From IMG/VR virus record IMGVR_UViG_3300027333_000001: 64,000 nucleotides of DNA. One strand, given 5' to 3'. This document shows, in pieces, positions 3-36,510 of this stretch. The notes under the pieces were generated by a model that was not told the DNA's origin, did not search any database, and saw only the letters and a list, made by a program, of their open reading frames with translations. This stretch comes from a virus (taxonomy: Duplodnaviria; Caudoviricetes). Both the position numbers and the translations under genes were made by a program. Positions within the stretch are counted from its first letter, which is position 1. Every line of letters starts with the position of its first letter.

Positions 3-1652
3 CCAAAGGAATCACTAAAAAGAGCAAGTCTTGCATATTGTGGTGGTGATTTAGAATTAGCAGATCGTATTTACCAATATGCAGTCAATGGCTGGTTTAT
101 GTTCTCATCACCTATCTTGTCTAATGCTAGACTAAATGGTGATAAAAAAGCAGGCTTGCCTATTTCCTGCTTTTTGTCTTTTGTTGATGATTCACTAGAA
201 GGTCTTATTGACCATTCTAATGAATTAAGATGGATGAGTGTTTTAGGTGGTGGTGTAGGTGGACATTGGTCTTCTGTGCGAACAGTATCAGATAAAAGCC
301 CCGGTCCTATTCCTTTCATTAAGACCATTGACAGTGATGTTGAAGCCTATAGACAGGGCAAAACAAGGAAGGGATCTTATGCCTGCTATTTAGATGTCAG
401 CCATCCTGATATTATTGAATTTCTTAATATCCGTGTACCTACAGGTGGCGATACAAATAGAAAGTGTTTCAATCTCAATAATGCAGTCAATTTATCTGAT
501 GCTTTTATGCAAGCTGTTTTAGATGATGCAGATTGGAATTTAGTAGATCCACATAATAAACAAGTAAAAGAAACTGTTAAGGCAAGAGAATTATGGCAAA
601 GAATTTTAGAAGTGAGATTTAGAACAGGTGAACCTTATTTCTTTTTTAGTGATACTGCTAATAAACATTTGCCACAATCCCTTAAAGACAAAGGTCTTAA
701 AATTCATGGCTCAAATCTCTGCTCGGAGATATATTTACCCACAGATAAAGACAGATCAGCTGTGTGTTGCTTATCTTCATTAAATATTGAGTATTTTGAC
801 GAATGGAAGGACACCAGCATTATTGAGGACTGTATTACTTTCCTAGATAATGTCTTGCAGTATTTTATTGATACTGCTCCAAAGCAATTACATAAAGCTA
901 TCTACTCTGCTATGCACGAAAGAAGTTTAGGTTTAGGTGCTATGGGTTTCCATTCTTATTTACAAAGAAAGAATATTGCCTTTGAATCAGCTATTGCTAA
1001 AAGTGTTAATATGAAAATCTTTAAGACTATTAAAGAAAGAGCAGTTAAGCAAACTGAAGAACTAGCTAAAACAAGAGGTGAGTATTTAGATGGTGTAGGT
1101 ACAGGTAGAAGAAATAGTCATTTATTAGCTATTGCACCTAATGCAAATTCAGCTATTATTTTAGACACATCACCAAGTATCGAGCCGTGGAAATCTAATG
1201 CCTTTACACACAGAACAAGAGCAGGCAGTTTCTTAACAAAGAATAAATACCTAGATAAGATTTTAGTAGAGAAGAATTTACCTAAAGAAGAATATGATTC
1301 TATTTGGCAATCTATCATTTTAAATCAAGGTTCTGTACAGCATTTAGATTGTTTAACAGATTACCAAAAAGATGTATTTAAGACAGCATTTGAACTAGAT
1401 CAGATGTGGCTTATTGAACATGGTGCAGATAGACAAGTACATATTTGTCAAGGTCAATCTTTAAACCTATTTTTTCCATCAGGTAGTGATAAAGCATATG
1501 TAAATGCAGTACATATTATGGCTTGGAAAAAAGGTCTTAAAGGTTTGTACTATTTAAGAACGAATACAGGTGTTGTAGCTGAAAAGGTTTCAACCAAAAT
1601 AGAAAGAAAAGCACTCAAAGATTATGATGAGTGTATTGCTTGTCAAGGATAA
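3..1652 (+). CDS. nrdA: Ribonucleoside-diphosphate reductase class Ia alpha subunit (5'-truncated by the window)
   Basis: Frame is open from the left edge (PKESLKRAS...WFMFSSP). Motifs PISCF, GSNLCSEI, LGLGAMG, AIAPNANS, GLKGLYY and C-terminal CIACQG. Confidence 0.95.
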   Translation, partial: PKESLKRASLAYCGGDLELADRIYQYAVNGWFMFSSPILSNARLNGDKKAGLPISCFLSFVDDSLEGLIDHSNELRWMSVLGGGVGGHWSSVRTVSDKSPGPIPFIKTIDSDVEAYRQGKTRKGSYACYLDVSHPDIIEFLNIRVPTGGDTNRKCFNLNNAVNLSDAFMQAVLDDADWNLVDPHNKQVKETVKARELWQRILEVRFRTGEPYFFFSDTANKHLPQSLKDKGLKIHGSNLCSEIYLPTDKDRSAVCCLSSLNIEYFDEWKDTSIIEDCITFLDNVLQYFIDTAPKQLHKAIYSAMHERSLGLGAMGFHSYLQRKNIAFESAIAKSVNMKIFKTIKERAVKQTEELAKTRGEYLDGVGTGRRNSHLLAIAPNANSAIILDTSPSIEPWKSNAFTHRTRAGSFLTKNKYLDKILVEKNLPKEEYDSIWQSIILNQGSVQHLDCLTDYQKDVFKTAFELDQMWLIEHGADRQVHICQGQSLNLFFPSGSDKAYVNAVHIMAWKKGLKGLYYLRTNTGVVAEKVSTKIERKALKDYDECIACQG

Positions 1653-1658
1653 GAAAAA

Positions 1659-1874
1659 ATGAAGAAGATTATCTCTGCCTTATTACTTTATGATCTCAAT
1701 AAAGATTTTTTAGATGCACATGAAAATGAAGATGTATCTGATGTGGATTTAAATGAACCTGTTATTATTAATAAGGCAGGCATGATCTTAAGAAATGAAA
1801 AACCACTTATTAAGGTCTTACAGTCAAAAGACTTGGTAAATGTTTATTACCAATTGGGAAATGAAAATGAGTAA
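1659..1874 (+). CDS. Small hypothetical protein between nrdA and nrdB
   Basis: 71-aa ORF with AAGGA-like RBS, tightly coupled to both neighbours; no recognisable motif. Confidence 0.5.
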   Translation: MKKIISALLLYDLNKDFLDAHENEDVSDVDLNEPVIINKAGMILRNEKPLIKVLQSKDLVNVYYQLGNENE

Positions 1875-2841
1875 ATTACTAGAAACCACAATCACATATA
1901 AACCATTCCATTATCCATGGGCTATGGAATATGCTGAAAAACATGAAAAAATCCATTGGGGTACTTGGGAAGCTAAACTTCAAGAAGATGTTAAGCAATG
2001 GAAAAATGGTGGATTGACAGATCAAGAGAGAAAACATATTACTTCGATTTTAAGAATTTTTACACAAAGTGATTGTGCAGTAGCAGGCAACTACTGTGAT
2101 CAATTTATTCCTGTGTTTAAGAATAATGAAATCAGAAATATGCTTTTAAGTTTTGCTAATAGAGAAGGCACTCATCAACGAGCATATGCTTTATTAAATG
2201 ATACTCTTGGTCTAGCTGAAGAAGAATATTCAAGTTTCTTATCATATACTGAAATGAAATCTAAAATTGAGTTCATGCAGGAAACAGGTATTCACAATGA
2301 CCATCCTACTTTAAAAGCTATTGGTACTTCACTTGCTCAATCTGTATGCAATGAAGGTATGTCTTTGTTCTCAGCTTTTGTTATGTTATTAAATTACCAG
2401 CGATTTGGCAAAATGAAAGGTATGTGTGAAATTGTTGAATGGAGTATTCGTGATGAATCACTTCATGTAGAGGCAATGACTAAATTATTTCAAACCTTTT
2501 GTGAAGAAAATCCTAGAGTAGTAAATAATGACTTGAAAAAGCAAATCTACACTAACTTTACAAGAGCAGTAGAACTTGAAGATGCTCTTGTAGATTTGAT
2601 TTATGAGAATGATGAGAGTGTGATTTGTACTCTTAAAGGTAAAGATATTAAAACCTATATTAGATACCTTGCAGATAGACGATTATTACAGCTTGGACTT
2701 AAACCACAATTTAATCAAAAAGAAAATCCTTTGGAATGGTTGGATTGGATTATTAGTGGAGATAGCTTTAAGAACTTTTTTGAAGGTGTTGTGACAGATT
2801 ACAATGCAAGTGGAATGACAGGTGAATGGGGTTGGGATTAA
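1867..2841 (+). CDS. nrdB: Ribonucleoside-diphosphate reductase class Ia beta subunit
   Basis: Di-iron motifs FTQSD, REGTH, NEGMSLF, RDESLH and C-terminal NFFE...TDY. Start moved to ATG 1867 on RBS spacing. Confidence 0.93.
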   Translation: MSKLLETTITYKPFHYPWAMEYAEKHEKIHWGTWEAKLQEDVKQWKNGGLTDQERKHITSILRIFTQSDCAVAGNYCDQFIPVFKNNEIRNMLLSFANREGTHQRAYALLNDTLGLAEEEYSSFLSYTEMKSKIEFMQETGIHNDHPTLKAIGTSLAQSVCNEGMSLFSAFVMLLNYQRFGKMKGMCEIVEWSIRDESLHVEAMTKLFQTFCEENPRVVNNDLKKQIYTNFTRAVELEDALVDLIYENDESVICTLKGKDIKTYIRYLADRRLLQLGLKPQFNQKENPLEWLDWIISGDSFKNFFEGVVTDYNASGMTGEWGWD

Positions 2842-3929: not shown

Positions 3930-3975
3930 GACTGCACCTTTCTGTTTTAAGAAAGGTTTCTACATTTAAAACTTA

Positions 3976-5286: not shown

Positions 5287-7377
5287 ATGCCATTTTATGT
5301 AGCTAAAGTCATGGGGCAAGTTTTTGCTAATGCTCCTTATTATGTTTTAAGGTGTATCGTTTATTCCGATACAAAATCCGAAGCTAAAACCATCAAAGGT
5401 AAAATCATTGGTAATACAGAAAGAGATAGCTATATCCTTTTTGAAGGTAAAGAAATTCAAGAAACCTATCAAGGTGTTACTAAGCCAGCTATTGAAGTTT
5501 TAAGATCACCTATTGATCCAAAACAACTTAAAGGTCTTGCTTTAAATGAATGGCAAAAGCAATCTAGTCCTGAAAAGAATAAAACCTATTCCATCGCAAG
5601 CAATCTTGTTTCCTGTGGTATTAATCCTAAAATCTTAAATTCTATTTGGTCTATCATTTCAAGAAATCCACAAGAGATTTTAGATAATGCTTGGCTACTT
5701 GTAGATTATGGTATTCCTTTTAAGACAGCTGATCAAATTGCCTTAACTCTTAATCCTACTTCTTATGATCTTAAAAACACTAATCGTATGAAAGCCTGTG
5801 TAAAAGAAGCTATTCATCAATCTGTTATAGATGGCAACTGCTATTTAGACAGTAAAAGTATTTTTGAAAGTGTCTTAACTAACACAGGTGAAACTGATCC
5901 AAGTAAAATTGCTTTGCTTATTAAAGAAATGGTCAATGATAAACAGATCATCATTGAGAAAGCATATCATGGTAATGCTATTTACCTTCCTAATATTCAT
6001 CGTATGGAAACAGATGTAGTAAATTATTTAACAAATCCAGATAGACGAAAAGGTCAAAGAGAAACTATTAGCTATATTAAATCACATAGTAAATACGATT
6101 TAACAGAAGATCAAATTGAGGCTATCCAAAGAGGACTTGAACAGCCTATCTCTATTGTATCAGGTTTGCCCGGGACAGGTAAAACTACAATCCTTTCCGT
6201 GTTATGTTCTATCTTAAAAGAAAAGAAAGAAACTTTATTATTAGTAGCACCTACAGGTATTGCATCTAAACGATTAGCATCTGTTGTTAAAATGGATGCT
6301 ATGACTATTCATAGAGCATTTGGAGCAGGTGGTGTGGATGATGATAAGAGTATTTTAAGCACTTATGAAGGTCTTATTAAAGATACTGATTCAAGTGTAG
6401 GCAGTGTCTTATCAAGAGATAACACTAGAGAACATTGGAATTACACACCTAATAATCCTAGACAAGAAACTATTCTTATCATTGATGAAGCATCTATGGT
6501 AGATCTTCATTTACTTTGGCGATTATTAAGAGGCATCACTTTAAATTGTAGAGTGATTTTTGTAGGTGATGTTGCTCAACTTCCACCTGTAGGAGCAGGA
6601 TTTACTTTAGCTGATATGATGGCAAGTAATAAAATCCCATCTGTGCATTTAACAAAAATCTTTAGACAAGGTGAAGGCTCAGGTGTTGTGATTGCATCTC
6701 ATGATGTTTATAATGGTCTAGTACCTACATCTAATAATGAATTTATCTTTTTAAATAACTACTCAAACCATGACATTTTAGAAACTCTTAAATCTTTATG
6801 CCTGCAACTTGAAGAAGAAGAAATTGATTACCATATTATATCACCTACTCATCATGGTGATTTAGGATGTACAAATCTTAATAAAGTTTTAAGAGCAAAA
6901 CTTAATCCTACTATTTCATCATCTGTATTAAGAATAGGCAATGATGAGATTAGAGAAAATGATAAAGTCATGATTACTCAAAACGATTATGATTTAGGTG
7001 TCTTTAATGGTGATCTAGGTAAAGTGTTTACGATTAGAAAAGATTGTGTAGATATTATTTTAAGAAGTGGAACAGGTAGCAATACAATGATTTCCATTCC
7101 AAAAGATAAAGTATCCAGCTTAATGAGATTAGCTTATGCCACTACAGTACATAAATCACAAGGTCAAGAGTATCAAGTGATTTTAATGCCATTGGTAAGA
7201 GAATTTGGCAACAGCTTAATTCAGAGAAATCTTATTTACACAGCGATTACAAGAGCAAAACAGAAAGCCTATTTAATAGGAGATATAGATGCACTTGCTT
7301 TAGGTGTTGCGAATACAAGTACAAAAGTAAAATATTCAAGATTAAAAGATAAACTTATTGAAAATAAGTGTGTTTAA
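5287..7377 (+). CDS. recD2: RecD2-like SF1B DNA helicase
   Basis: GLPGTGKTT, LVAPTG, IIDEASMVD, VGDVAQLPPVG, IFRQ, FNGDLG, AYATTVHKSQGQEY and YTAITRA. Confidence 0.9.
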   Translation: MPFYVAKVMGQVFANAPYYVLRCIVYSDTKSEAKTIKGKIIGNTERDSYILFEGKEIQETYQGVTKPAIEVLRSPIDPKQLKGLALNEWQKQSSPEKNKTYSIASNLVSCGINPKILNSIWSIISRNPQEILDNAWLLVDYGIPFKTADQIALTLNPTSYDLKNTNRMKACVKEAIHQSVIDGNCYLDSKSIFESVLTNTGETDPSKIALLIKEMVNDKQIIIEKAYHGNAIYLPNIHRMETDVVNYLTNPDRRKGQRETISYIKSHSKYDLTEDQIEAIQRGLEQPISIVSGLPGTGKTTILSVLCSILKEKKETLLLVAPTGIASKRLASVVKMDAMTIHRAFGAGGVDDDKSILSTYEGLIKDTDSSVGSVLSRDNTREHWNYTPNNPRQETILIIDEASMVDLHLLWRLLRGITLNCRVIFVGDVAQLPPVGAGFTLADMMASNKIPSVHLTKIFRQGEGSGVVIASHDVYNGLVPTSNNEFIFLNNYSNHDILETLKSLCLQLEEEEIDYHIISPTHHGDLGCTNLNKVLRAKLNPTISSSVLRIGNDEIRENDKVMITQNDYDLGVFNGDLGKVFTIRKDCVDIILRSGTGSNTMISIPKDKVSSLMRLAYATTVHKSQGQEYQVILMPLVREFGNSLIQRNLIYTAITRAKQKAYLIGDIDALALGVANTSTKVKYSRLKDKLIENKCV

Positions 7378-9523: not shown

Positions 9524-10234
9524 ATGAGTGGCTTTTCAACTTTTGAATTAGGTGGCAATTCCACCATCCTTTCAGCAAAATCAGCAAGATGGAAACCTCA
9601 AAAAGGTAAGTATCGTGTCAGTTTTGTTACTCTCCCCGGCATCGAAAATGGTCATCCTGATCACAATGCAAAAGCACCTCTTTTCAAAGGTGGTCGTAGA
9701 TTGTATCACAAGGATGTTGGTTATTTCATTGATCACGGTCCTGAATATGCAAAACTTGCAGGTGAACCATCAAAGGTAGCAATCGCAACAGTGATTGTTT
9801 TATGGCCCACAGATGCAAATGGTGTGATTGATATGAATCGCTTAAAGAAAGGTGAATTTGATCCAAAGTCTTGGATTTTCTCTCTCGATAAGTATCGTCA
9901 ATTAGAAGCAATTCAAACTGAATTTCCTTTGACACAACATGATATCACTATCACTGTTACTGATCCACAGTTTCACAAGATGTCATTTGCACCATGTAAA
10001 GACAATTTGTTTACTGCGATCAAAGCAAAAGAACCAAATCTTTATGCAAGTGTTGTAGAAGTCGTTAAAGATATTTACTCAAGATTGCAAGATGATGTTG
10101 CACAAGACTTAACTATTGATCAAGTAAGAGAAAAGTTAAGTGGAGCAGGTGGTGCTACAAGTCCTGTTGCCAAGAGTGGATTTTCAAGTAACTTTAGTGC
10201 AGATGATGTTCTAAGCAATGTACTTGATGATTAA
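9524..10234 (+). CDS. Putative single-stranded DNA-binding protein
   Basis: AAGGAG SD, own promoter (GTGGAA-N16-TATAAG at 9413-9440), beta-rich core, flexible linker and acidic tail; recombination cluster context. Confidence 0.45.
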   Translation: MSGFSTFELGGNSTILSAKSARWKPQKGKYRVSFVTLPGIENGHPDHNAKAPLFKGGRRLYHKDVGYFIDHGPEYAKLAGEPSKVAIATVIVLWPTDANGVIDMNRLKKGEFDPKSWIFSLDKYRQLEAIQTEFPLTQHDITITVTDPQFHKMSFAPCKDNLFTAIKAKEPNLYASVVEVVKDIYSRLQDDVAQDLTIDQVREKLSGAGGATSPVAKSGFSSNFSADDVLSNVLDD

Positions 10235-11640: not shown

Positions 11641-11970
11641 ATGTTTTCAATGGAAATGGGTCGTCAAATCCTATTGCTTATCCAACAGGGAAAGACAATT
11701 AAAGAAGTAGGCGAGATTTTATCTTTACCTGCTAGAACTATACATAGGCATAAAAAGAAATATCAAGAACTCACAAATATAGATATGTCTATAGAATATA
11801 ATCAGCATTTATTTGCATACAAGTTATATCTAGCAGGAATGCCTATGAAAGATATAGCTAGATTTTTAAACTATAAACGATATAACAATGTTTTGTCTAT
11901 CATCCAAAAATATAAGAAATCTAAGATCAAAATCGATCTTAAAATTCACACAATAGGAATCATAGAATGA
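11641..11970 (+). CDS. Tandem helix-turn-helix DNA-binding protein
   Basis: Two HTH-like segments (GKTIKEVGEILSLPARTIHRH; GMPMKDIARFLN); ATG 11641 after AAAGGA. Confidence 0.65.
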   Translation: MFSMEMGRQILLLIQQGKTIKEVGEILSLPARTIHRHKKKYQELTNIDMSIEYNQHLFAYKLYLAGMPMKDIARFLNYKRYNNVLSIIQKYKKSKIKIDLKIHTIGIIE

Positions 11971-12605
11971 TCACATTAGGTTTAGATCCATCATTAAGAG
12001 CATTTGGTTGGACTTTAATAAATGACAATGCAGAAATTATGGACAAAGGTTTATTAGGCACAGATGCTGATATGATCTTTGTAGAAAGATATATGTATTT
12101 AAGACAGGAAGTTTTAGCTTTAATACATAATATCAAAACTCAATATCCAAATGAGAACTTAACAATGGCAGTGGAATCACCATATTTTAATGACTTGTTT
12201 TCTGAAGGTATGTATGGTCTTTTCTTATATGTAAATGAAGCTATTAAGTTAGGCGAAGTAGATGTTATGTTTTTATCACCATTACAGGTAAAGGCTCATG
12301 CACATAAATATTTAGGTAGACCAAAAGGCTGGAAAATGCAAAAATCAGATATGGTTTTAGCCTGTAAAAAAGCAAATCCAAATGTTAAGAAACTTAATAA
12401 CCACCAAGCAGATGCCTATTGGGTAGCTAGAACAGGACAAAGGTTTTGGAAATTTGTAAATGAGATTATTACAGATGCAGATTTAGATGATGTAGAGAAA
12501 AGTCAGTTTGCTAGATTAGATTTAAATAAAGCAGGACAGGTAAAAAGCAAAGGCATCATGTATAAAGAAGATGATCGTTTTTTTAGGTGGTCTTTAAAAA
12601 GTTAA
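11967..12605 (+). CDS. ruvC: RuvC-like Holliday junction resolvase
   Basis: LGLDPSL, MAVESPY, PLQVK and NNHQADAY catalytic pattern. Confidence 0.75.
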   Translation: MITLGLDPSLRAFGWTLINDNAEIMDKGLLGTDADMIFVERYMYLRQEVLALIHNIKTQYPNENLTMAVESPYFNDLFSEGMYGLFLYVNEAIKLGEVDVMFLSPLQVKAHAHKYLGRPKGWKMQKSDMVLACKKANPNVKKLNNHQADAYWVARTGQRFWKFVNEIITDADLDDVEKSQFARLDLNKAGQVKSKGIMYKEDDRFFRWSLKS

Positions 12606-13623: not shown

Positions 13624-14850
13624 ATGGCAAAAGCTAACCTTTCCAAAATCGCAGGTGTTTTAAAAGCATCTCTTAAAGAAGATTTTGTAGTTCAACTTGA
13701 CGATTCTAAAGTCAATTCCACAACACCCCATGTTTCCACAGGATCAATCGCTTTAGATTATCTTATTGGTGGCAAAGAAAATGAAAGAGGTGTTAAACCA
13801 TGCCCCGGACTTCCTAGAGGTCGTATTACTAATATCTATGGCAATGCAGGTGCAGGTAAAACTACTATTGCATTACAAACTGCCGCCCAAGTTTGCCAAG
13901 CTGGTGGTACTGTTCTTTACATCGATTGGGAAAATGAAGTAGAACCTAAATATGCTCAAGCATTAGGTGTACCTGTCACTGATAAAGATAAATTCATGCT
14001 CGTTCAACCTGATACTCTTGAAACAGGTTTAAAGTACATGGCTATGTTTGCAAGAGAAGGTGTTGATCTTATTGTGATTGACAGTGTTGGCGCCGCAGTT
14101 CCACAAGCTATGTTTGAAAAACAAGATGGTGAAACACAAATGGCAGTTGGTGCTAATGCTCGTGTATGGTCTGTTTATCTTCCTAAACTAAAAAATATCA
14201 TTGCAAAGCATAATACCTGTGTGATTGGTATTTCTCAATTAAGAGAAGCTATTGGTGGCATGACATCCTTTGCGGGTCCAAAAACTACACCACAAGGTGG
14301 TAAAGCATGGCAGTATTACTCAACCTTGCAAATCAAATTATCTGTTGTTCAAAAAGAAAAAGGCAAACTTTGGGATGGTCTACAAGGTAAGATGATTGAA
14401 ACTGTAACAGGTGCAGTAGTAAGGGCACATTTAGATAAATGTAAAGTATCTGATAGTGTTCACCATGAAGTAGATTTCTTCTTAATGAGTGGCAAAGGTG
14501 TAGATAATGAAAGAACTATTATTGATCTAGCTATTAATAGTGGTGTGATCAGTAAAAAAGGTGCTTGGTTCTCATGGCAATCACCAACAGGTGAATTAAG
14601 ATCTCAAGGTCTTGCAGGTTTTAAAGAACAATTACAAGCTATGGATGGTGGTCTAGTCGCTTTGTTTACTCAAGTTAAACCTTTCATCTCTCAAAATAAA
14701 GATGGTGGTGTTGCTCCAGCAGATGCAACAGCAACTGCATCAGAAGAAAAAGCACCAGCTAAAAATAGCAAGCTAGATAAAATGGCAAGTGCTAACCTTG
14801 ATGATATGTTTGGTGATGATGATGAAGAATTTTTTGATGATGAAGAATAA
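13624..14850 (+). CDS. recA: RecA recombinase
   Basis: STGSIALD, GNAGAGKTT, YIDWEN, IVIDSV, ISQLRE, TPQGGKA and KGAWF; acidic tail; no intein. Confidence 0.93.
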   Translation: MAKANLSKIAGVLKASLKEDFVVQLDDSKVNSTTPHVSTGSIALDYLIGGKENERGVKPCPGLPRGRITNIYGNAGAGKTTIALQTAAQVCQAGGTVLYIDWENEVEPKYAQALGVPVTDKDKFMLVQPDTLETGLKYMAMFAREGVDLIVIDSVGAAVPQAMFEKQDGETQMAVGANARVWSVYLPKLKNIIAKHNTCVIGISQLREAIGGMTSFAGPKTTPQGGKAWQYYSTLQIKLSVVQKEKGKLWDGLQGKMIETVTGAVVRAHLDKCKVSDSVHHEVDFFLMSGKGVDNERTIIDLAINSGVISKKGAWFSWQSPTGELRSQGLAGFKEQLQAMDGGLVALFTQVKPFISQNKDGGVAPADATATASEEKAPAKNSKLDKMASANLDDMFGDDDEEFFDDEE

Positions 14851-16506: not shown

Positions 16507-17076
16507 CTATTTAAATAAGTGTTTCATAAGGGATTTTTTAAGTTCTTTATATTTTTCTAATTTTTCTTTTGTCTGCTCAATAAGATTATCTAGATCAGAT
16601 AAGCAAGTGGCTATTTTATGCTGTTCTTGAAAGATAGGTGTTTGAATCGCTATTATACTAACATCTTTTTTTTGAAGATTTGGTATCCCCGTACCTACTT
16701 TTCTTGACATAATATCTTTTTCGATATGCTTCAAAAATTGAAAAAGGTATTGAGTGTCAATATTTGATTTAATATTTAATAGTGTATAGCAATGACCACC
16801 TGCCCAAAAATCTTCTCTCATAAGATTTACAAATCCTGTAGATGCACCACCTTCACTAATCGTAATCGTATTAGCTGGTGTGTTATAAGAATGGTAGTAA
16901 CCTGATGGTTCTACACCACCATTTATAAATTTATATCTATTTACTATGCTTTGTTTTTCAAATAACTTTGTTTTATTGATTTGATCGCCTTTGATAATAC
17001 TTCCAACATCACCAAGTTTCTTCTCTTCCCAATCAGGAAAATTACTACCATCATTCCTCTTAAACCTTAATGTCAT
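16507..17076 (-). CDS. hsdS: Half-size type I restriction-modification specificity subunit (single TRD)
   Basis: LRFKRNDGSNFPDWEEKKLGDV N-terminal conserved region, one TRD, PIFQEQHKIATCLSDLD and KKSLMKHLF C-terminal region; about 190 aa. Confidence 0.85.
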   Translation of the reverse strand: MTLRFKRNDGSNFPDWEEKKLGDVGSIIKGDQINKTKLFEKQSIVNRYKFINGGVEPSGYYHSYNTPANTITISEGGASTGFVNLMREDFWAGGHCYTLLNIKSNIDTQYLFQFLKHIEKDIMSRKVGTGIPNLQKKDVSIIAIQTPIFQEQHKIATCLSDLDNLIEQTKEKLEKYKELKKSLMKHLFK

Positions 17077-17081
17077 ATTAC

Positions 17082-18533
17082 TCAATCCTCTAAAAGAATA
17101 TCTAAACCTAATTCTACAAGATGTTCATTCACTTTACTTGTTAAAATCTTTAAGTCTTTATTGATCTGATTGATCTGTTTTAAAGTATCTACTAAATCAA
17201 TCTCTTCTTCTTCCTCAATATTACTTATATACCTTGAGATATTTAGATTAAAATCATTATTTTTAATCTCATCTAAACTAGCCAAATGAGAATATTTAGC
17301 TATCTCTTTTCTTCCTGCATAAGTGTCTATGATTTTTTCTATATGCTGATCAGTGATAAGATTGGTTTTCTTTTCTTTAATGAAATCATTAGATCCATCT
17401 ATGAAAAGAATATCTGTATTTTGCCTATTCTTTTTTAAGACTAAAACACAAGTACCAATACTTGTATTTGTAAAGAGATTTTCAGGTAATCCTATAATAG
17501 CATCTACCAAATTCTCTTCTATTAAATGCTTTCTGATCTTTTCTTCACTAGCACCACGAAATAAAACACCATGTGGCAAAAGCACAGCTGAAATACCATC
17601 ATCTGAAAGGTGGTGTGCTGAATGCTGGACAAAAGCAAAATCTGCTTTTGTTTTAGGTGCTAATAGACCACCAAATCTAATATCATTATTAGGAGTCCAT
17701 GATAAACTATATGGTGGATTAGCAACGATTGCATCAAACTTTAAATTTAAATGTAAAGGTTGCTTTAAAGTATCACCATGCTTAATATCAAAATTATTTA
17801 AATGAACATTGTGCATAACCATGTTCATTCTACATAGGTTATATGTAGTCTTCATAATTTCTTGACCATAGAAATTATCCACAGGTATCTCTTTGGCAAC
17901 ATTTAAAAGTAAAGAACCTGATCCACAGCTTGGATCATATACATTTCTTAAAGATGTCTTATTTAAACAAACAATTTTAGATAAGACTTTGGAAACTTGT
18001 TGTGGTGTGTAGAACTCACCAAAATTTCCACCATTAAAATACTCATAGACATCACCTAAAATATCTTTTTCACCTGTCAATGATGGCATCTTATTCAAGT
18101 TATTTAAGATATGTAAAAGATCACTTTTACCAAGAGATGAGAGATTGATATTCTCAAATAAAGAACTGTCTATTTCTTTAAACACATTCTTTAAATCATC
18201 TACAATGTCTAAACCTTTATTTGCTTTTTCTACTAGAAAGCTAAATAAGAGATCTTCATTTAAGAAGAAACCTAAATCTTTAAAAGCATCTTCTTTAGAT
18301 GAGTATGTCACCATCTTTTCAGAAATATGTTTATAGAAGATAAAAGCTAAAATGAAATCTCTAAATTCCATATCAGATAATGAACCTCTAATAGAATATG
18401 CAATATCTAATAGCTTTTCTACTTTGATTTCTTCTGCATTAGATAATGCTGATTTAGTAGCAGGTTTAGATAATGCAGGTGTTTCAGATTTAACTTCTAG
18501 TGTTTCATCTTCAAATAGAGAAACTTGTTTCAT
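17082..18533 (-). CDS. hsdM: Type I restriction-modification N6-adenine methyltransferase subunit
   Basis: GEFYTPQQVS, VYDPSCGSGSLL, YGQEI, VANPPY, LPHGVLFRG and FNLNISRY; extra N-terminal MKQVSLF plus linker. Confidence 0.92.
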   Translation of the reverse strand: MKQVSLFEDETLEVKSETPALSKPATKSALSNAEEIKVEKLLDIAYSIRGSLSDMEFRDFILAFIFYKHISEKMVTYSSKEDAFKDLGFFLNEDLLFSFLVEKANKGLDIVDDLKNVFKEIDSSLFENINLSSLGKSDLLHILNNLNKMPSLTGEKDILGDVYEYFNGGNFGEFYTPQQVSKVLSKIVCLNKTSLRNVYDPSCGSGSLLLNVAKEIPVDNFYGQEIMKTTYNLCRMNMVMHNVHLNNFDIKHGDTLKQPLHLNLKFDAIVANPPYSLSWTPNNDIRFGGLLAPKTKADFAFVQHSAHHLSDDGISAVLLPHGVLFRGASEEKIRKHLIEENLVDAIIGLPENLFTNTSIGTCVLVLKKNRQNTDILFIDGSNDFIKEKKTNLITDQHIEKIIDTYAGRKEIAKYSHLASLDEIKNNDFNLNISRYISNIEEEEEIDLVDTLKQINQINKDLKILTSKVNEHLVELGLDILLED

Positions 18534-18568
18534 GTTTTTCAATCCTTTTCTTTTTCTTTTTATAAATC

Positions 18569-20220: not shown

Positions 20221-21222
20221 ATGGATTTGAATAGTAAAATACTTTCAAGTGTAATTCTTGAAAGTGAAGATGATATGAATGTTCTTTATTGGTCGCATTT
20301 AAAGGTAATGAGAGAATGTCCACAAAAATTTCTGTGGTCAAGAGGAAATCCTGAAATTGATTTAGGTGCAGGTTATGGCAAACCTAAACCTTTACCTGCT
20401 GAAGAAGAAAGAGCAAGTGAACATTATGCTTTAATGGGAAGTGTCTTATCAAGAGTAGTTGAACTTTTATATAATGATGAATTATGGAAAGAACCTACTT
20501 TATTAAGAGAAAGAGTAGAAGAAATTGCTCGTAAAGAATTTATCCTGCAGGAAGGTGGCAAATATCTTGATTGGCGAAATATGCCTAGAGAAGAGGCTAT
20601 TGCTACTTGTATAACAGGTGCAGTCAACTATCTTAAGATTATGAAACATAATAAGCTATTGGGTCCTTATGCTAGATCAGAAGTAAAAATGGAAACATGG
20701 CTAACACCAGCTATTAAAGATTTAAAGATTTGTGGTATTGCAGATTTAATCTTTAGAGATGGTAATGATAAAGTACATATTTTAGATGGTAAAAATGCAG
20801 GCACCCCGGGCAAGTATGAAGATGATGATCAGTTAAGATGGTATGCCTTATGTTATAGATTAGCTTATGGTGTAAATCCTGATCGTTTAGCTTTCTTTTA
20901 TTTCAGATTTCCACCAAATGAAAAACCTGATATTAAATTTGATGGTGATTGGAATGGCATGGTAGAAGTATCATTTACAGATGATGATATTAAAAGACTT
21001 GCCAAAGAAGCATTAGAAACACAAAAGGCAATTCAAAAGAAAAACTTTGAGCCAAATCCTGTACCAAAGCATTGTGTAAATTGTGCATATGAAAGTGTAT
21101 GTGAACCTAGACAAGCACAAAAGAAACATAACTCAGCTAAAAGAGGATTAGGCAAAACAAGTACAACAGATCCATTTGATAATAATAACAGTTTGCCTGT
21201 ATTAGATTTTGGTAAAAAGTAA
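20221..21222 (+). CDS. PD-(D/E)xK Cas4/AddB-like nuclease with probable Fe-S cluster
   Basis: ECPQKF, GIADL..ILDGK, QLRWY and CVNCAYESVC (1+3 Cys pattern). Confidence 0.8.
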   Translation: MDLNSKILSSVILESEDDMNVLYWSHLKVMRECPQKFLWSRGNPEIDLGAGYGKPKPLPAEEERASEHYALMGSVLSRVVELLYNDELWKEPTLLRERVEEIARKEFILQEGGKYLDWRNMPREEAIATCITGAVNYLKIMKHNKLLGPYARSEVKMETWLTPAIKDLKICGIADLIFRDGNDKVHILDGKNAGTPGKYEDDDQLRWYALCYRLAYGVNPDRLAFFYFRFPPNEKPDIKFDGDWNGMVEVSFTDDDIKRLAKEALETQKAIQKKNFEPNPVPKHCVNCAYESVCEPRQAQKKHNSAKRGLGKTSTTDPFDNNNSLPVLDFGKK

Positions 21223-23404: not shown

Positions 23405-24180
23405 AGACCATAGCTTGCTTTAGTAGCATTGTAATTATTAAGAATTATTGCATCGCTGATGGCATCATTCCATATATGGAAAGCACCTAATCTAAAAGTA
23501 CCGTCAGCTCCACTTAACATATTTGTACCTGACCTATAGCCTATATTGTAATAATATCCTACACCTGCGGGTCCATTATTATATGGTGTTTGTCTATTAT
23601 TTTTAGCAAAAGTTCCTGCAGGTTGACCATTTATATATCCCTTTAATGTTGAGCCATCATAAGTAAAACCTATATAATGCCAATTATTAACACTAATTGT
23701 TGCAGTAGAAAGTAATGTTGTTGAAGTCACAACTGAAGTATATTGCCAAACTCCAAATCTTACTTTATTTCCACTTACCATTTCTATTTGTGTATCATAC
23801 CATCCACCCGGTGCATCAGGTGTTGTAGAACCTTGTTCAGATAAAATAGTACCTATTATTGAGCCTATTGGATATATCCATATAAAAAGAGAAATTGTAA
23901 CACCTGTATTAGCTGGCGATAAATAAGGATTTAAACTTGTGCTTGTAGTAACATACTTACTACTACCATTATCAAAAAAGAAATAACTAGGTGTACCACT
24001 TGTATAAGGTACAGAGCCTACAACAGTACCATTAATAGTTCCATCCAAATCTGTAATTGTTGTACCTGATCCACTATATGATGATGAGTTTTGAAAATCC
24101 CAATATGTGATCATACTAGAACCTGTAATAAATACAGGTTCAGAAGATGGTTTTATTATTCCGTGTGTCGCTTTAAGCAT
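23401..24180 (-). CDS. LamG/concanavalin-like beta-sandwich protein (tail-associated, paralog of 59635-60897)
   Basis: MLKATHGI N-terminus; NNWHYIGFTYDGSTLKGYING LamG signature; end-to-end similarity to 59635-60897. Confidence 0.75.
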   Translation of the reverse strand: MLKATHGIIKPSSEPVFITGSSMITYWDFQNSSSYSGSGTTITDLDGTINGTVVGSVPYTSGTPSYFFFDNGSSKYVTTSTSLNPYLSPANTGVTISLFIWIYPIGSIIGTILSEQGSTTPDAPGGWYDTQIEMVSGNKVRFGVWQYTSVVTSTTLLSTATISVNNWHYIGFTYDGSTLKGYINGQPAGTFAKNNRQTPYNNGPAGVGYYYNIGYRSGTNMLSGADGTFRLGAFHIWNDAISDAIILNNYNATKASYGL

Positions 24181-24284
24181 ATACTTATATCCTTTCTCTT
24201 TTAGAAAAAAAATAAAACAGATATAAACCAACTGCTTTTATTGTATCATATAAAGCACCACTCATATCATAGGCATACGAATAT

Positions 24285-24665
24285 ATGAAAACTGAAGGTT
24301 CTGTTAAACATAAGCTAAAGCAAGTCAAATATAGAATAGTTCAAAAAGCTATTCGGACTTCTTTATCTAAAAAACCATGTAATTGTACACATTCAGGTTT
24401 GGTGAGAGGTGCAAGTGGTGATGATTTGTTTTATGTATGTTTATTAGATAGTGATAAACCTAAACTTTGGGAAGGCACTATTTGTGACCAATCTGTACCA
24501 CCTAACTGTCCTTTCTTTAAAGTAGAGAAAACAAAAGAAGAAGTAGAACAGGAAATAGAAGATTTACTGCAAAGTGGTGACATGGGAAAAATAGCAAGTA
24601 TATATCCTGATATCGCTGCCCTATTATGGGTTTTAGATGAAAGCAAAGAAGAAGATGAGCAATAA
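24285..24665 (+). CDS. Cys-rich hypothetical protein
   Basis: 126 aa with five spaced Cys. Confidence 0.55.
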   Translation: MKTEGSVKHKLKQVKYRIVQKAIRTSLSKKPCNCTHSGLVRGASGDDLFYVCLLDSDKPKLWEGTICDQSVPPNCPFFKVEKTKEEVEQEIEDLLQSGDMGKIASIYPDIAALLWVLDESKEEDEQ

Positions 24666-25104
24666 AATACCTTTTGAGATTGTGAAAATAGAAAACAAAA
24701 AAGCACCTTTGTTTTTAGAGTTGCCTGTTCCACCATATTGTTATCCTATCTTAGTAGGTGGCAGTAAAACTACTACTTTAAAATGGATGGAAAAAGCTAC
24801 TCAAAACAATACTGTTCTTTGCTGGTCAGTTAATAACTCTACTTTGGAATCTATATCAGATGAATGTATTAAAGCTATTAAAGAAAGAGCCAAAACAGAT
24901 AATTGGAACTCATTCGCAAGCACAGAGGAAGATGCAGTAAAGAAACTCAAATTAGAAGGTATTGAAAAGGTAAAAAGAATAGGCGATATGGTAGTGCCAC
25001 AAGAACATGATTTATTAGGTACGATCATTATCTTTGAAAACAAGTTTTATCCTGTGATACATAATGCTATCCGTGCAATATGCTTTATTGAAAATAAGGA
25101 GTGA
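24655..25104 (+). CDS. Hypothetical protein
   Basis: ORF coupled to the upstream gene; ATG 24655. Confidence 0.55.
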   Translation: MSNKIPFEIVKIENKKAPLFLELPVPPYCYPILVGGSKTTTLKWMEKATQNNTVLCWSVNNSTLESISDECIKAIKERAKTDNWNSFASTEEDAVKKLKLEGIEKVKRIGDMVVPQEHDLLGTIIIFENKFYPVIHNAIRAICFIENKE

Positions 25105-25105
25105 T

Positions 25106-25459
25106 ATGCCTATACCTACAGATGAAGTGAAATATGAGAGAGATTTAAAAGAACTTAAATTTTATTGGGAAATTTTAAATCAAGTGTATTACTCAACCAT
25201 ATCAAGACTGCATTTATTAAGACATGAAAATCCATATTTCATGTCACAGATGATGTATGGTATCAATATGGCAACAGATAGTATTTTGACTGCATATAAT
25301 AAAGACAGTCAAGTCTTAATCTGTAAACACTGCAAGCAATTATATATTAAAGACTTCCCTTGTCTTAATAATAATAAAATGCCTTGTGATCCAATAGAGT
25401 ATCATAAAGACATGACATTTGAAGATATGTATGACTACACATCCAAGAAAAGAGGATAA
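25106..25459 (+). CDS. Hypothetical protein with CxxC
   Basis: ATG 25106 after AAGGAG; CKHC motif. Confidence 0.55.
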   Translation: MPIPTDEVKYERDLKELKFYWEILNQVYYSTISRLHLLRHENPYFMSQMMYGINMATDSILTAYNKDSQVLICKHCKQLYIKDFPCLNNNKMPCDPIEYHKDMTFEDMYDYTSKKRG

Positions 25460-25464
25460 GAAAA

Positions 25465-25770
25465 ATGAGTGAACTTAAAGGCAAGTTATTAGAGCAACAA
25501 AAAAAGTTCTTAACGATTGCGACAGATTTAGGCAATTTACTTGAAGAGAAAAATCAAGCCTATGGAAATGCTTTTGTAAAGATCACAGAAGTCTTAAAGA
25601 TTTTATATCCTGAAGGCATTAAACCTGAACAGTATCAAGACTTAGGATTAATCATTCGTATATTAGATAAGCTATCAAGAATAGCTAAAGATAATGATCC
25701 ATTTGGTGAAGATCCATTTAAAGATATAGCTGGATATGCAATTTTAGCACAGGCAATTAGAAAGAAATAA
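25465..25770 (+). CDS. Nucleotide-modification-associated domain 1 (DUF1599-like) protein
   Basis: EEKNQAYGNAF...RILDKLSRI...DIAGYAIL pattern recalled for this family. Confidence 0.65.
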   Translation: MSELKGKLLEQQKKFLTIATDLGNLLEEKNQAYGNAFVKITEVLKILYPEGIKPEQYQDLGLIIRILDKLSRIAKDNDPFGEDPFKDIAGYAILAQAIRKK

Positions 25771-31843: not shown

Positions 31844-32116
31844 ATGTTTCGTAGATTACAAAACAATATTAGAAAAGCTAGTCCAATGGATGCTTATGCA
31901 CAGGTTTCTGATATTGCACAAGAAATTCAAGAATTAGTTGAGAATGGTTCTTCTCTTATTGAAAGAGAAGAGAAAGCTATTAGAAACGAAATGATTGAAA
32001 CACCAGCTATTCGTTCTTTAAAGAATCAAATTGATTCTGATTTATATGACATTTATCAATTGGCTAAGGCTTTAGAAAAAAAAGCTATCCTCATCCAAAA
32101 ATCTATGAAAGGTTAA
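31844..32116 (+). CDS. Small helical protein with basic RKAS leader
   Basis: MFRRLQNNIRKAS; AAAAGGA SD. Confidence 0.6.
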   Translation: MFRRLQNNIRKASPMDAYAQVSDIAQEIQELVENGSSLIEREEKAIRNEMIETPAIRSLKNQIDSDLYDIYQLAKALEKKAILIQKSMKG

Positions 32117-32122
32117 CCCATC

Positions 32123-32554: not shown

Positions 32555-32591
32555 TTAATAATTGATTTATTAAATTGCATTTGTTAAGATT

Positions 32592-32634
32592 AAAATAAAA
32601 AAGCCTTAATATGCTTTGCAGAGCATATTAAGGC
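32592..32634 (-). terminator. Intrinsic terminator (minus strand)
   Basis: Perfect 13-bp stem GCCTTAATATGCT/AGCATATTAAGGC (32603-32615 / 32622-32634), 6-nt loop, followed on the minus strand by TTTTTTATTTT. Confidence 0.85.
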
Positions 32635-32672
32635 ACATCCCAATAAACCTGAGAGAGAGGTCTAAATGAGTT
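32592..32672 (-). ncRNA. Candidate ~80-nt small RNA
   Basis: Lies between a TTGACA-N17-TAGAGT promoter and a terminator; no ORF; internal 7-bp hairpin with a CUCUCUC loop. Confidence 0.45.
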
Positions 32673-32678
32673 CAGATA

Positions 32679-32707
32679 ACTCTAAAGATATTGCTATTAT
32701 TTGTCAA
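32679..32707 (-). promoter_or_regulatory. Sigma70-type promoter pointing into the terminator
   Basis: TTGACA (32707-32702), N17, TAGAGT (32684-32679). Confidence 0.6.
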
Positions 32708-32719
32708 GACAGAATTAGT

Positions 32720-33868
32720 CTAAAACAAGCTAACCATCTTTCTCTTATCACAATATATACTGCCTGCTACCACTACTCTCTCTTCTTTCAAAATAGACAA
32801 AACCCCAATCTCATATCCACTCTCTAAATATCCTATTAGCTTTTTATATAAGGCATCTTTGTTTTTAGCATTTTTGAATTTTATGCTTTTTTCAATATGT
32901 AGTTTTTTATTATATAAGGCTATATAACCTTGAGTAAATGTCCATCCTGCTTTTAAATGTGATAACACATCATTTGTGTGAACTGTTTTCTTTTCACCTG
33001 TCAATAGAAAGATCATTTCTTTATTCGCTTTACATTCTTTCATTGCTTTACAATGCTTTTCTTTAACTTCAGGTCTTGAATGTCTTTCTTTCAATGATTT
33101 ACTTTTCTTTTCTTTAAATTCAGGTCTTGACCAATTTTCTTTCTGTGCTTTACTCATCTTTTCTTTAACTTCAGGTCTTGCCAAAGTTTCTTTCAATGAT
33201 TTACTTCTCTTTTCTTTAAATTCAGGTCTTGACCAATTTTCTTTAGATGATTTACTCATCTTTTCTTTATATTCGGAACTTGAATGACTTTCTTTCTGTA
33301 CCTTACTTTGCTTTTCTTTAAATTCAGGTCTTGACCAATTTTCTTTGGATGCTTTACTTTTCTTTTCTTTATATTCAGGTCTTGACCACATTTCTTTAAG
33401 TGCTTTACTCAGTTTCTCTTTAATTTCAGGTCTTGCACAAGCATCTTTAAGTGCTTTACTTTGCTTTTCTTTGCTTTCTTCACTTAAGCCACCACCACCA
33501 AATCTGCCACCTGTCTTTAAATTATAGCATACCTTTAATTCATCTCTATATCTCTTAATTACATCTTCTGTGATGAGTAATCCTTCTGCCAAATAAGCAT
33601 CCTGTGCAGTAGTAAAGAATTGCAATCTGTAATGTTGAAAGTTTAAATATCCGTGTTTCTTAATAGCATTTTTAAATGCTATGCCTGATCCAATATAGCC
33701 ATCATTAAGGTCTTTTGTTGTGTGCTTACCTAGATAGAATTTATTGTTAATGGTGTTAATAGTGAGATAGGTAAAATGATAGAAACCATCTGGATCAGTA
33801 AAGGGAATGACAGAATTAGGACTATAAGTATTAAGAATTTGATTAGTAAAGGTTTGAGCATCACTCAT
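32720..33868 (-). CDS. Free-standing GIY-YIG (Seg-like) homing endonuclease with NUMOD3-type repeats
   Basis: FTYLTINTINNKFYLGKH...YIGSG, catalytic-type E in AYLAE, CYNL; about eight 17-aa RPExKEKxSK repeats. Confidence 0.85.
   Translation of the reverse strand: MSDAQTFTNQILNTYSPNSVIPFTDPDGFYHFTYLTINTINNKFYLGKHTTKDLNDGYIGSGIAFKNAIKKHGYLNFQHYRLQFFTTAQDAYLAEGLLITEDVIKRYRDELKVCYNLKTGGRFGGGGLSEESKEKQSKALKDACARPEIKEKLSKALKEMWSRPEYKEKKSKASKENWSRPEFKEKQSKVQKESHSSSEYKEKMSKSSKENWSRPEFKEKRSKSLKETLARPEVKEKMSKAQKENWSRPEFKEKKSKSLKERHSRPEVKEKHCKAMKECKANKEMIFLLTGEKKTVHTNDVLSHLKAGWTFTQGYIALYNKKLHIEKSIKFKNAKNKDALYKKLIGYLESGYEIGVLSILKEERVVVAGSIYCDKRKMVSLF
33040..33480 (-). repeat. Tandem 51-nt / 17-aa repeats in the endonuclease DNA-binding region
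   Basis: Recurrent TTCAGGTCTTG(A/C) on the + strand every ~51 nt. Confidence 0.85.
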
Positions 33869-33871
33869 ATA

Positions 33872-33903
33872 AATATCCTATTGGTCTAGTTTAGGATATT
33901 ATA
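33872..33903 (-). promoter_or_regulatory. RBS-sequestering hairpin plus lone TATAAT upstream of the GIY-YIG gene
   Basis: 9-bp perfect stem AATATCCTA/TAGGATATT; the 3' arm contains the AGGA SD; TATAAT at 33903-33898 overlaps the 5' arm. Confidence 0.65.
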
Positions 33904-33918
33904 CAAGCTAGATATAAA

Positions 33919-36510
33919 TTACATCTTATTTACAGTTTCAATGAATTTTTTAGCAATCGTTTGAATACCTTTACGAGTAGTAGCAACACCTGTCACTAAA
34001 GCACACATTTCAGCAAACCATTCAAGAACATCTTTCATCGCATAATTAGAAGGACAGACAATAGTTCTAGCAAGGCTGTCTTCAGAAATTTCTTGTTTTT
34101 GTTTAGTTTCAAGGTTTTGGAAAACATAAACAGCACCTTCACCTCTTTTACCTTTAATTTCTATGCAAACACTATCATCTTCTGTAGCATATCGTACTAC
34201 AAAATGTACTTTGTATTCAGAAAGAAGAGATCCTATGACAGGTAAAGAATCTTTAATACAAGAATCCTTTGTAGTCATTTTAAAAAGATTGATCATTTCT
34301 TGATTTTTCAAAAAGTTAGGTAACTCTTCATTATGGAATTTATGTCCAAACTCATGCACAATATCAGAAATTCTTTCTTTAGAATCTTTTTTTCTATATG
34401 GATCAGTGTAGAAAGCAATAATACCTGTATCTACTTCATAAGATGCGGCGGCATCACTAGAATCTGCTAATCCTCGTTTTTTAAGATCTGCATATTTACC
34501 AACAAAGACACGATCTCTAAGAACATTTTTAAATTTAGTAAGTGGTGAGTTCTTAATAATGTGGATTGCTCTTTCAAAATCATTTTTAATAAGTAGCAGT
34601 GTTTTTTCATTAATCTCTGAAATAAAGATAAGTTTAAAATTACCTAACTTAAGGATAACTTCAGATACTTCTCTTGCACCTTCTGATTCAATATATTCAT
34701 TGTTTAAGTTTAAATCAATAGGATATTTAGCACCTCTCCATAATCTAATGCTTGGATCATAATATCCAAATTTCCATTCCTTTTCTCTTTTCTCTAATTT
34801 AGAGATTTCAAATTGGATATTGTTTTTCTCTTTTAATTCTTCTTCTTTGTAATTATTAGGATACTTATTCATCTTATAAAGAAGTTGAGTTAGTTTAGAG
34901 ATTTGAAAAATAGTAGCCTCTTTAGATAATTCCTGTGGCAATTTACCTGAACCATAACAATTATCTGATTTCATCCAATTACTAAAGGTATATCCATGTG
35001 CATGGATTGTGCCATCTTCATTTAAAGCCTGATGTCTAAGACAGGCTTGGCAAGTTCCATATGCAGGATGGAACTTCAAAATAAATTTAATCTTTTCATT
35101 TAAAGGTAATTCAGCAGGTGGTATTAATTCTTCTTCTTTATATGTACTAACAAAATTAGGAAGTTCAATAGTTTTTCTTCTAACATCAGTAGTTAATATA
35201 TCTATGCCACTCTTACTACCAAAAGGATGGAAAATATATCCTTGATTGGCAGTGAAAGATGCTTCAAGTGTAAAATAGATATCAAAATCTAGACTGCCAA
35301 TCATGTCTATTTTCATAGTGAATAAACTTGACCATGCTTTTCTTTGTATATCTCTAACCATCTTGTTTTTTAAACTATCTGCAATATCCTTTCCTTTTGC
35401 GATTTCAAGATCTATCTCAAAAACAATCTTTTTGTTATCATCACTTAGTTTATATTTATAGTAGTCTATTAAGTGTTCATACTGTCCTGTTGAATAAATT
35501 ATATCTTGTGTGTATCCACGAATAATTTGAACAATACCTGTTGTAGAAATCACCTTCTCTTTTTCTTCTTTTTTAGTAGGTGCAGGTTTAGTTTTTTTAC
35601 CTGCACTAGGTTTTTCGTCTGTACTGACTGATGATTCTGTATGAAATAAATTTGAATCAGGTTGTGTTCCGATAATATTAAGTTGAGGTTTGTAATTAGA
35701 CAGGTGTTCATAAAAAGATCTAAATTTCATTAATGAAAATTGTGAAACATCGGAGTATTCTTTAATTTCACCGATTGTAAGATTTGCATAATCAGTAAAA
35801 AGACTGTTAATTGCAGTAGACCATGAAGAATCAGGAACATTCCAGCTATCTTCAAAAAGACTTACATCAATCTTCGGAATAAAAATATTAGAACCTTCTG
35901 TATTACCATAAAAGTATCTACCATTTAAAGCTATCTGTTCAAATTGATTGTTTGCTAATTCTTCATCACCTGCCCTTGCAACATATGAAAGAAGAGGTTT
36001 AGGTATGATTGCAGGTTCTGTTTTAAAATTAAAAGCTGATCTTTTTGATTCACTTTTTATCCAATAACTATCTGTGTTACTTGCATTTAACTGAAATCGT
36101 TCATATTCTGATGTGAAGTATTTTTTCTGTTCAGCAGTCAACTCTAGTACACCAAGATCTTCTTTTTTACCTTCTAAAAAGAGTTCAAAACTCAAGGCTT
36201 TTCTTTCAGGTGTCATATTTTTTAATGGTACAGATTTAGATGTAACAGTACCTAAAGGTGATTTAGATGTTTTATATTTTTTATCTCTATAAAATTCATC
36301 ATATTGAGGTACAATTACAGGTGTTTCCAACAATGGATACTCATTCAATTCTTCTATTTTTTTAGAGATGGCAGATTTGGCTCTTGTTAGTGGAAGTAAT
36401 TGATATCGTCCAAAACAATCTGCTAAAAACAAACGAAATCCTTTATTCGCAAGGATTATATCTTTAAGTTTCATTTTATCATCAAAAATGAGAGTAGATT
36501 TTTTTTTCAT
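33919..36510 (-). CDS. Large protein with a Zn-finger-like motif and C-terminal zincin (HExxH) domain
   Basis: CQAC...HAHG...CYGSG; IVHEFGHKFH; C-terminal SNYAMKDVLEWFAE. Confidence 0.65.
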   Translation of the reverse strand: MKKKSTLIFDDKMKLKDIILANKGFRLFLADCFGRYQLLPLTRAKSAISKKIEELNEYPLLETPVIVPQYDEFYRDKKYKTSKSPLGTVTSKSVPLKNMTPERKALSFELFLEGKKEDLGVLELTAEQKKYFTSEYERFQLNASNTDSYWIKSESKRSAFNFKTEPAIIPKPLLSYVARAGDEELANNQFEQIALNGRYFYGNTEGSNIFIPKIDVSLFEDSWNVPDSSWSTAINSLFTDYANLTIGEIKEYSDVSQFSLMKFRSFYEHLSNYKPQLNIIGTQPDSNLFHTESSVSTDEKPSAGKKTKPAPTKKEEKEKVISTTGIVQIIRGYTQDIIYSTGQYEHLIDYYKYKLSDDNKKIVFEIDLEIAKGKDIADSLKNKMVRDIQRKAWSSLFTMKIDMIGSLDFDIYFTLEASFTANQGYIFHPFGSKSGIDILTTDVRRKTIELPNFVSTYKEEELIPPAELPLNEKIKFILKFHPAYGTCQACLRHQALNEDGTIHAHGYTFSNWMKSDNCYGSGKLPQELSKEATIFQISKLTQLLYKMNKYPNNYKEEELKEKNNIQFEISKLEKREKEWKFGYYDPSIRLWRGAKYPIDLNLNNEYIESEGAREVSEVILKLGNFKLIFISEINEKTLLLIKNDFERAIHIIKNSPLTKFKNVLRDRVFVGKYADLKKRGLADSSDAAASYEVDTGIIAFYTDPYRKKDSKERISDIVHEFGHKFHNEELPNFLKNQEMINLFKMTTKDSCIKDSLPVIGSLLSEYKVHFVVRYATEDDSVCIEIKGKRGEGAVYVFQNLETKQKQEISEDSLARTIVCPSNYAMKDVLEWFAEMCALVTGVATTRKGIQTIAKKFIETVNKM

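Follow-up and report, generated by a model that had tools for sequence, protein, structure and literature searches.

Can the avoidance of a five-letter word in phage DNA reach the level of the protein and empty a proteome of one dipeptide? The question is raised by a 64,000-nt stretch of the IMG/VR virus record IMGVR_UViG_3300027333_000001 (Caudoviricetes), hereafter the window, in which both GCWGC (W, A or T) and the dipeptide Ala-Ala are almost absent. The window has a G+C content of 31.2% and densely packed phage genes, and its proteome was represented by 90 non-overlapping open reading frames (ORFs), chosen greedily, which comprise 19,792 amino acids and cover 93% of the sequence. A preliminary description of this DNA had proposed that selection against GCWGC has rewritten amino acids in conserved enzymes. 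The results presented below indicate that strong selection on GCWGC in the DNA, likely driven by restriction, has very probably purged Ala-Ala by residue replacement.

Depletion of GCWGC and Ala-Ala in the window

GCWGC was found once in the window (GCTGC at 24615), against 47 occurrences expected from dinucleotide composition and 45 (order 2) or 56 (maximal order) expected under higher-order models, and its under-representation was significant under every composition-based model tried. GCSGC (S, C or G) occurred four times, each time within a surviving Ala-Ala pair, against a dinucleotide expectation of 4.1 that allows for the shortage of CpG; this word thus showed no excess attributable to recoding, and its off-frame expectation was very small. 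Five Ala-Ala junctions were present in the 90 ORFs, compared with 57.7 expected from the frequency of Ala, 63 after scaling by the slight Ala-Ala excess of non-avoiding relatives (P = 4e-21) and 65.4 (standard deviation 7.7, minimum 39 of 300) in within-gene shuffles of codon order. Ala-Ala was the most depleted of the 400 dipeptides, and pairs of Ala at spacings of 2-7 reached 0.93-1.26 of expectation, compared with 0.07 at spacing 1.

The preliminary description had counted only five Ala-Ala junctions, four spelled GCC-GCN and one GCT-GCC at 24615, and the same coordinates were recovered here; the two comparisons that it had suggested, of Ala-Ala with the Ala frequency and of GCWGC with GCSGC, are those given above, and both bear it out. 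Its statement that the Ala-rich fibre repeats contain no Ala-Ala also held: the tail-fibre ORF at 60908-64000 (minus strand), which continues past the end of the window, has 9.9% Ala and carries five DADAS-type repeats, had none against 10.1 expected. Another tail-fibre ORF, at 55534-58911 (minus strand), likewise had none against 5.7 expected, and RecA (13624-14850, plus strand) had two against 4.1 expected from its own composition. GCA and GCT accounted for 90% of the Ala codons in the window, GCC and GCG for 10%, and in shuffled codons 92% of the expected GCWGC (59/64) fell in the Ala-Ala frame. Off-frame GCWGC was absent from the window against about five expected (4.9; P = 0.007), a small expectation.

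The codons of the surviving pairs were not a random sample of the Ala codons in use. The sole GCWGC belongs to GCT-GCC at 24615-24619 (plus strand), which encodes residues 111-112 of the ORF at 24285-24665, where Ala-Ala is invariant among the aligned relatives and a close relative, IMGVR_UViG_3300046779_001841 (88-96% identical), spells GCG-GCC. The GCTGC at this site may be a recent G-to-T change. Contigs from four freshwater runs, dated 2019-2025, showed no variant at this site, but contigs conceal rare variants, and the runs are possibly the source of the window. RecA contains Ala87-Ala88 as GCC-GCC (13882-13887, plus strand), a GCSGC word, at a position where 22 of the 25 non-avoiding relatives also have Ala-Ala and where avoiding relatives keep it with a GCS first codon. 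The remaining pairs are RecA Ala157-Ala158, spelled GCC-GCA (14092-14097, plus strand), and an Ala-Ala-Ala run, spelled GCC-GCC-GCA (34444-34452, minus strand), at residues 687-689 of the ORF at 33919-36510, which provides two junctions (34452 and 34449) and two GCSGC words. The first codon was GCC in four of the five survivors, against a combined GCC and GCG usage of 10% (P = 4.6e-4), and the observed five is near the number of GCS-GCN pairs expected by chance without recoding (57.7 x 0.10 = 5.8). Most relatives have Ala-Gly at RecA residue 157, and the presence there of GCC-GCA thus suggests that Ala-Ala is tolerated as a peptide if it is free of GCWGC.

Conserved columns and related loci

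At 16 alignment columns, Ala-Ala is the state of 50% or more of the non-avoiding relatives. The window kept it at two of these columns, compared with a retention of 39% for other Ala-containing dipeptides (Fisher P = 0.027), and at one of 11 when compared with the nearest non-avoiders alone. Both kept columns, RecA residue 87 and residue 111 of the ORF at 24285, are near-invariant across relatives, and at former Ala-Ala columns the window has Ala-Ser (three), Ala-Cys (two), Gly-Ala (two), Val-Ala, Ala-Asn, Ile-Ala and Asn-Ala. NrdA (3-1652, plus strand; Pfam Ribonuc_red_lgC), the 5' end of which is missing at the window edge, shows three such changes, and the motifs SYAAY and IEHAAD, named in the preliminary description as typical of its subgroup, proved to be those of most non-avoiding relatives. 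At residue 127 (nt 381, GSYACY) it has Ala-Cys, where 37 of 39 non-avoiding and all 34 avoiding relatives have Ala-Ala, with GCG or GCC as the first codon in 31 of the 34 avoiders; at residue 474 (nt 1422, IEHGAD) it has Gly-Ala, where Ala-Ala occurs in 29 of 39 non-avoiding relatives; and at residue 8 (nt 24) it has Ala-Ser, where Ala-Ala occurs in 26 of 39. The nearest non-avoiding locus by NrdA, L044, has GCT-GCT at both residues 8 and 474.

In the RecD-like helicase (5287-7377, plus strand), Ala-Ser is found at residues 326 (nt 6262) and 470 (nt 6694), where all 12-13 non-avoiding relatives have Ala-Ala, and the conserved ORF at 11967-12605 (plus strand) has Ala-Cys at residue 132 (nt 12360), where Ala-Ala occurs in 17 of 21. 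The close relative has the same NrdA and helicase replacements, which are therefore older than its split from the window. Across the window, the dipeptides Ala-Ser, Ala-Cys and Ala-Gly were raised 1.3-1.5-fold. Alignment with homologues thus showed substituted Ala-Ala columns in NrdA and a retained pair at residue 87 of RecA, and the earlier suggestion that selection on the site reached residues of conserved enzymes is supported by the two of 16 columns kept, by the choice of GCS codons and by the relatives.

RecA and NrdA served as queries to assemble a comparison set of 120 related viral loci. In avoiding relatives the observed and expected numbers of GCWGC in the three frames were 26/372, 0/79 and 2/153, compared with ratios of 0.86-1.01 in the other loci. 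Loci were also sorted by off-frame GCWGC alone, so that the classes were not defined by Ala-Ala itself. The 23 off-frame avoiders (two sites against 178 expected) had Ala-Ala at 0.50 of expectation (288/575) and the 22 normal loci at 1.10 (834/758), giving an avoider/normal rate ratio of 0.46 (confidence interval 0.40-0.52), and the Methylophilales phage Melnitz-1 was normal (1.08). GCC or GCG stood first in 92-100% of the surviving pairs in avoider groups, compared with 12-36% of Ala codons. In the close relative, all five survivors in 47.8 kb were GCG- or GCC-first, against a usage of 10-13% in the window and this relative. On the NrdA tree the state changed between avoiding and normal at least 5-7 times, and low Ala-Ala never went the opposite way; a sign test on this tree had five independent pairs, with the same direction in 3.7 on average, which are too few for P < 0.05.

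Many IMG/VR relatives and the cultured Pelagibacter phage HTVC031P (L124, MH598800.1) met the same pressure on the same word and the same Ala-Ala codon pairs by recoding. HTVC031P had GCWGC at 1/42.8 and GCSGC at 48/7.8, a six-fold excess that arises because its Ala-Ala pairs are recoded; its Ala-Ala stood at 0.55 of expectation, with 40 of 41 pairs GCS-first. This pattern suggests that a defence directed at GCWGC exists among SAR11 hosts. Recoders keep half of their Ala-Ala by means of GCG or GCC, with GCSGC raised 2- to 6-fold, whereas the lineage of the window is unrecoded and keeps 9%.

Proposed cause and alternative explanations

TseI and ApeKI have GCWGC as their site, and BbvI recognises GCAGC, which, when both strands are read, amounts to the same word. 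We propose that the lineage of the window has been under strong selection against GCWGC (GCAGC/GCTGC), most likely exerted by a host restriction endonuclease of either the palindromic TseI/ApeKI type or the type IIS BbvI type, which cannot be separated by sequence. Synonymous escape would be limited to GCC-GCN or GCG-GCN, each of which makes a CpG together with CCGC or GCGG, which the genome avoids. With no clean spelling left, one alanine of the pair would be swapped, mostly for Ser, Cys or Gly, and the few pairs that persist would do so mostly as GCC-GCN. TseI serves as a GCWGC-specific enzyme in a preprint (10.1101/380360), and GCWGC methyltransferases are, by their titles, the subject of two further papers (PMC8557920, PMC8936443); GCWGC (cytosine) methyltransferases are documented in freshwater prokaryotes.

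The shortage of CpG may be the reason why the lineage did not recode. CpG in the window is 0.27 of expectation, the lowest value among avoider loci, the codon junction NNC-GNN occurs 189 times against 570 expected, and CCGC/GCGG occurs seven times against 23 expected. The window may thus be extreme because the GCS-GCN escape makes CpG, which it avoids too. As in known effects of CpG bias on codon-pair and amino-acid-pair usage, a nucleotide constraint at the codon junction limits which codons can be neighbours; unlike in those, the CpG shortage here joins a five-letter word and looks site-specific. In this connection, RCGY is nearly absent from the window (ACGT 0, ACGC/GCGT 1, GCGC 1; in total two against about 96 expected from dinucleotides), and TCGC/GCGA and ACGA/TCGT, far from being depleted, are at about twice their dinucleotide expectation, the close relative being alike. 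The loss of RCGY beside the excess of TCGC/GCGA therefore makes the CpG shortage look like the sum of specific avoided words.

Several points weigh against this scenario. Because about 92% of the expected GCWGC consists of Ala-Ala codon pairs, word and dipeptide are nearly identical in the window, and the causal direction rests on five codon pairs and on the relatives. The ortholog-column test stands on only 11-16 columns, and a GCWGC enzyme of the host is a candidate agent only. Loci L116-L120, which are also low in CpG (0.35-0.46), recode freely and have Ala-Ala at 0.5-0.8; CpG shortage alone is therefore insufficient to force the loss of Ala-Ala. Furthermore, CCGC is not scarce in the close relative, and among avoiders the CpG level explains little of the Ala-Ala loss (Spearman 0.36) and the share of GCS codons none of it.

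An enzyme of the Fnu4HI type, for which the whole of GCNGC would be the target, would make the CpG shortage unnecessary, and because each Ala-Ala codon pair contains GCNGC, it would leave no synonymous escape. The five GCNGC words of the window are its five Ala-Ala pairs, and the window, unlike most avoiders, is not recoded to GCSGC. Such avoidance does exist among the relatives: in the IMG/VR contigs L045-L053 (NrdA 71-72% identical), GCSGC is 0 against 3-11 expected in eight of the nine (1 against 3.5 in L047), the few GCWGC left are nearly all remaining Ala-Ala pairs, and Ala-Ala stands at 0.07-0.34, so that this clade is a case of GCNGC-type avoidance without synonymous escape; L008, L060 and L077 also deplete GCSGC, and their Ala-Ala lies within the same range. 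For the window, however, GCSGC remains at its dinucleotide expectation, and the survivors are GCS-first in four of five cases, as in all five of the close relative, against a usage of 10-13%. Selection is therefore stronger against GCWGC than against GCSGC, and a GCNGC target is possible for the window but rather unlikely. Alternatively, the phage or its relatives might carry a GCWGC nuclease of their own, directed for instance against host DNA, and avoid the word to spare their own genomes. This would predict the same avoidance, and the window does encode a PD-(D/E)XK protein (20221-21222) and a homing-endonuclease-like ORF (32720-33868), both nucleases of unassigned specificity, but the avoidance also occurs in pelagiphage-like genomes of about 40 kb and in jumbo phages that share few genes, and no candidate gene common to avoiders was found; we regard this explanation as improbable.

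Mutational decay, in which cytosine-5 methylation of GCWGC is followed by deamination with no selection by cleavage, would fit the GCWGC cytosine methyltransferases of freshwater prokaryotes, and one product, GTAGC/GCTAC, is at 1.66 times expectation. The products are not specifically enriched, however, since GTTGC/GCAAC is at 1.07 and GCACC and GCAGG, which do not arise by deamination, are at about three times expectation. The replacements are mostly Ala-Ser, Ala-Cys and Gly-Ala rather than the C-to-T-derived Val-Ala or Ala-Thr, and the GCS recoding of survivors requires selection, which makes decay very improbable. Finally, Ala-Ala might be harmful as a peptide, for instance as a protease site, or GCW-GCN might be an unfavourable codon pair; in either case GCWGC would have been lost as a by-product. 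With 92% of the expected GCWGC of the window in the Ala-Ala frame, counts alone cannot separate these ideas from selection on the word, but the relatives also lose GCWGC in the other two frames (0/79 and 2/153). Furthermore, recoding would suffice to remove a bad codon pair, whereas the window shows amino-acid replacement, and harm from the peptide would neither steer survivors to GCC or GCG nor leave Ala-Ala at RecA residue 157 (GCC-GCA) in a lineage where relatives mostly have Ala-Gly; we hardly credit this explanation. Selection on GCWGC in the DNA, followed by replacement of residues, thus remains the reading that we favour.

Other avoided words, gene content and implications

Besides GCWGC, the words CCWGG, GGCC, ACGT, RCATGY (0) and TTCGAA (0) are near-absent from the window, and ATGCAT occurs 0 times against 31-48 expected and AAGCTT once against 37-39. 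Off-frame counts were 0/9 for CCWGG, 0/6.5 for GGWCC and 0/24 for GGCC. Together, these missing words look like the record of exposure to many restriction systems. The effect on dipeptides extended to Pro-Gly, which stood at 0.54 in off-frame avoiders of CCWGG compared with 0.92 in the other loci, and all 10 Pro-Gly pairs of the window contain the rare codon CCC or CCG.

Shortages were also seen in the window for ACTGG/CCAGT (1 against 60-67), ACCCT/AGGGT (0 against 35-54) and CCAG/CTGG (64 against 224-234). After Ala-Ala, the strongest depletion of a dipeptide was that of Glu-Ala (35 against 83; P = 3e-9), a deficit that matches a shortage of GAAGC/GCTTC (36 against 86) and partially overlaps with AAGCTT, with no further target identified. 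The sole GGCC of the window (1 against 30-41), at 9803-9808, lies in its sole Trp-Pro (TGG-CCC; 1 against 6.6), a dipeptide every spelling of which contains GGCC. Across loci, Trp-Pro did not separate avoiders of GGCC (0.54) from normal loci (0.62), and His-X in relation to CATG showed only a weak difference (0.80 against 0.90); neither effect is claimed.

The window encodes, in addition to NrdA, the RecD-like helicase, RecA and the tail fibres, NrdB, SbcCD-like proteins, a sliding-clamp-like protein and adenine methyltransferases. A Type I HsdM with an adjoining HsdS-type specificity ORF lies at 16507-18542 (minus strand), and at 36928-39768 (minus strand) an adenine methyltransferase of 946 amino acids combines MmeI/Eco57I methylase domains with a Type ISP specificity domain. 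Among the window ORFs scanned, none was seen to encode a restriction subunit. It seems that the phage uses self-methylation alongside the avoidance of sites. A scan of related loci with the 946-residue methyltransferase gave no match, and scans with the helicase and a GroEL-like ORF matched only the close relative. When the first 20 kb were compared with cultured phages by megablast, there was no match; contigs containing a 2-kb stretch of the window (23600-25600) came from 20 lake, river and freshwater runs dated 2019-2025.

Avoidance of restriction sites (palindromes) in phage genomes was reportedly described by Sharp in 1986, Karlin in 1992 and Rocha in 2001. More recently it was treated by Rusinov (2018; PMC6286503). 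The window resembles these cases in that a known restriction-target word, along with others, is almost gone from a lytic-type double-stranded DNA phage, and it differs from them in that such avoidance is usually synonymous, whereas the window has lost about 90% of one dipeptide and conserved columns have changed. According to a 2021 review (PMC8410138), a nonsynonymous contribution to motif avoidance "cannot be excluded", and our literature search, outside which most subscription journals lay, turned up no account of restriction avoidance acting on dipeptides or through nonsynonymous change. The loss of Ala-Ala is thus an extreme consequence of a well-known form of site avoidance. Non-avoiding relatives, recoding relatives and the replacing lineage of the window make up a natural series, in which the pelagiphage and its SAR11 host provide one cultured system with the recoding mode.

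It is an even question whether the need to avoid defence targets constrains phage proteins generally and measurably. On this view, avoidance of GCWGC/GCNGC would have thinned Ala-Ala, and avoidance of CCWGG/CCNGG would have thinned Pro-Gly, by a factor of about two in many phages of aquatic habitats and of as much as ten in the lineage of the window. If so, past restriction specificities would be readable from the proteins of a phage, and the defences of hosts would be a source of substitutions in conserved enzymes such as NrdA, genes in the neighbourhood of RecA, and helicases. Deficits of dipeptides and codon pairs could help to infer the restriction specificities of hosts from metagenomic phages, and composition-corrected null models in which the protein is fixed will miss part of the avoidance. 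Restriction avoidance is usually seen as silent and confined to the choice of codons; here it costs a dipeptide and alters NrdA (SYAAY to SYACY) and a helicase, providing a countable, direct measure of the limits that host defence sets on the evolution of phage proteins.

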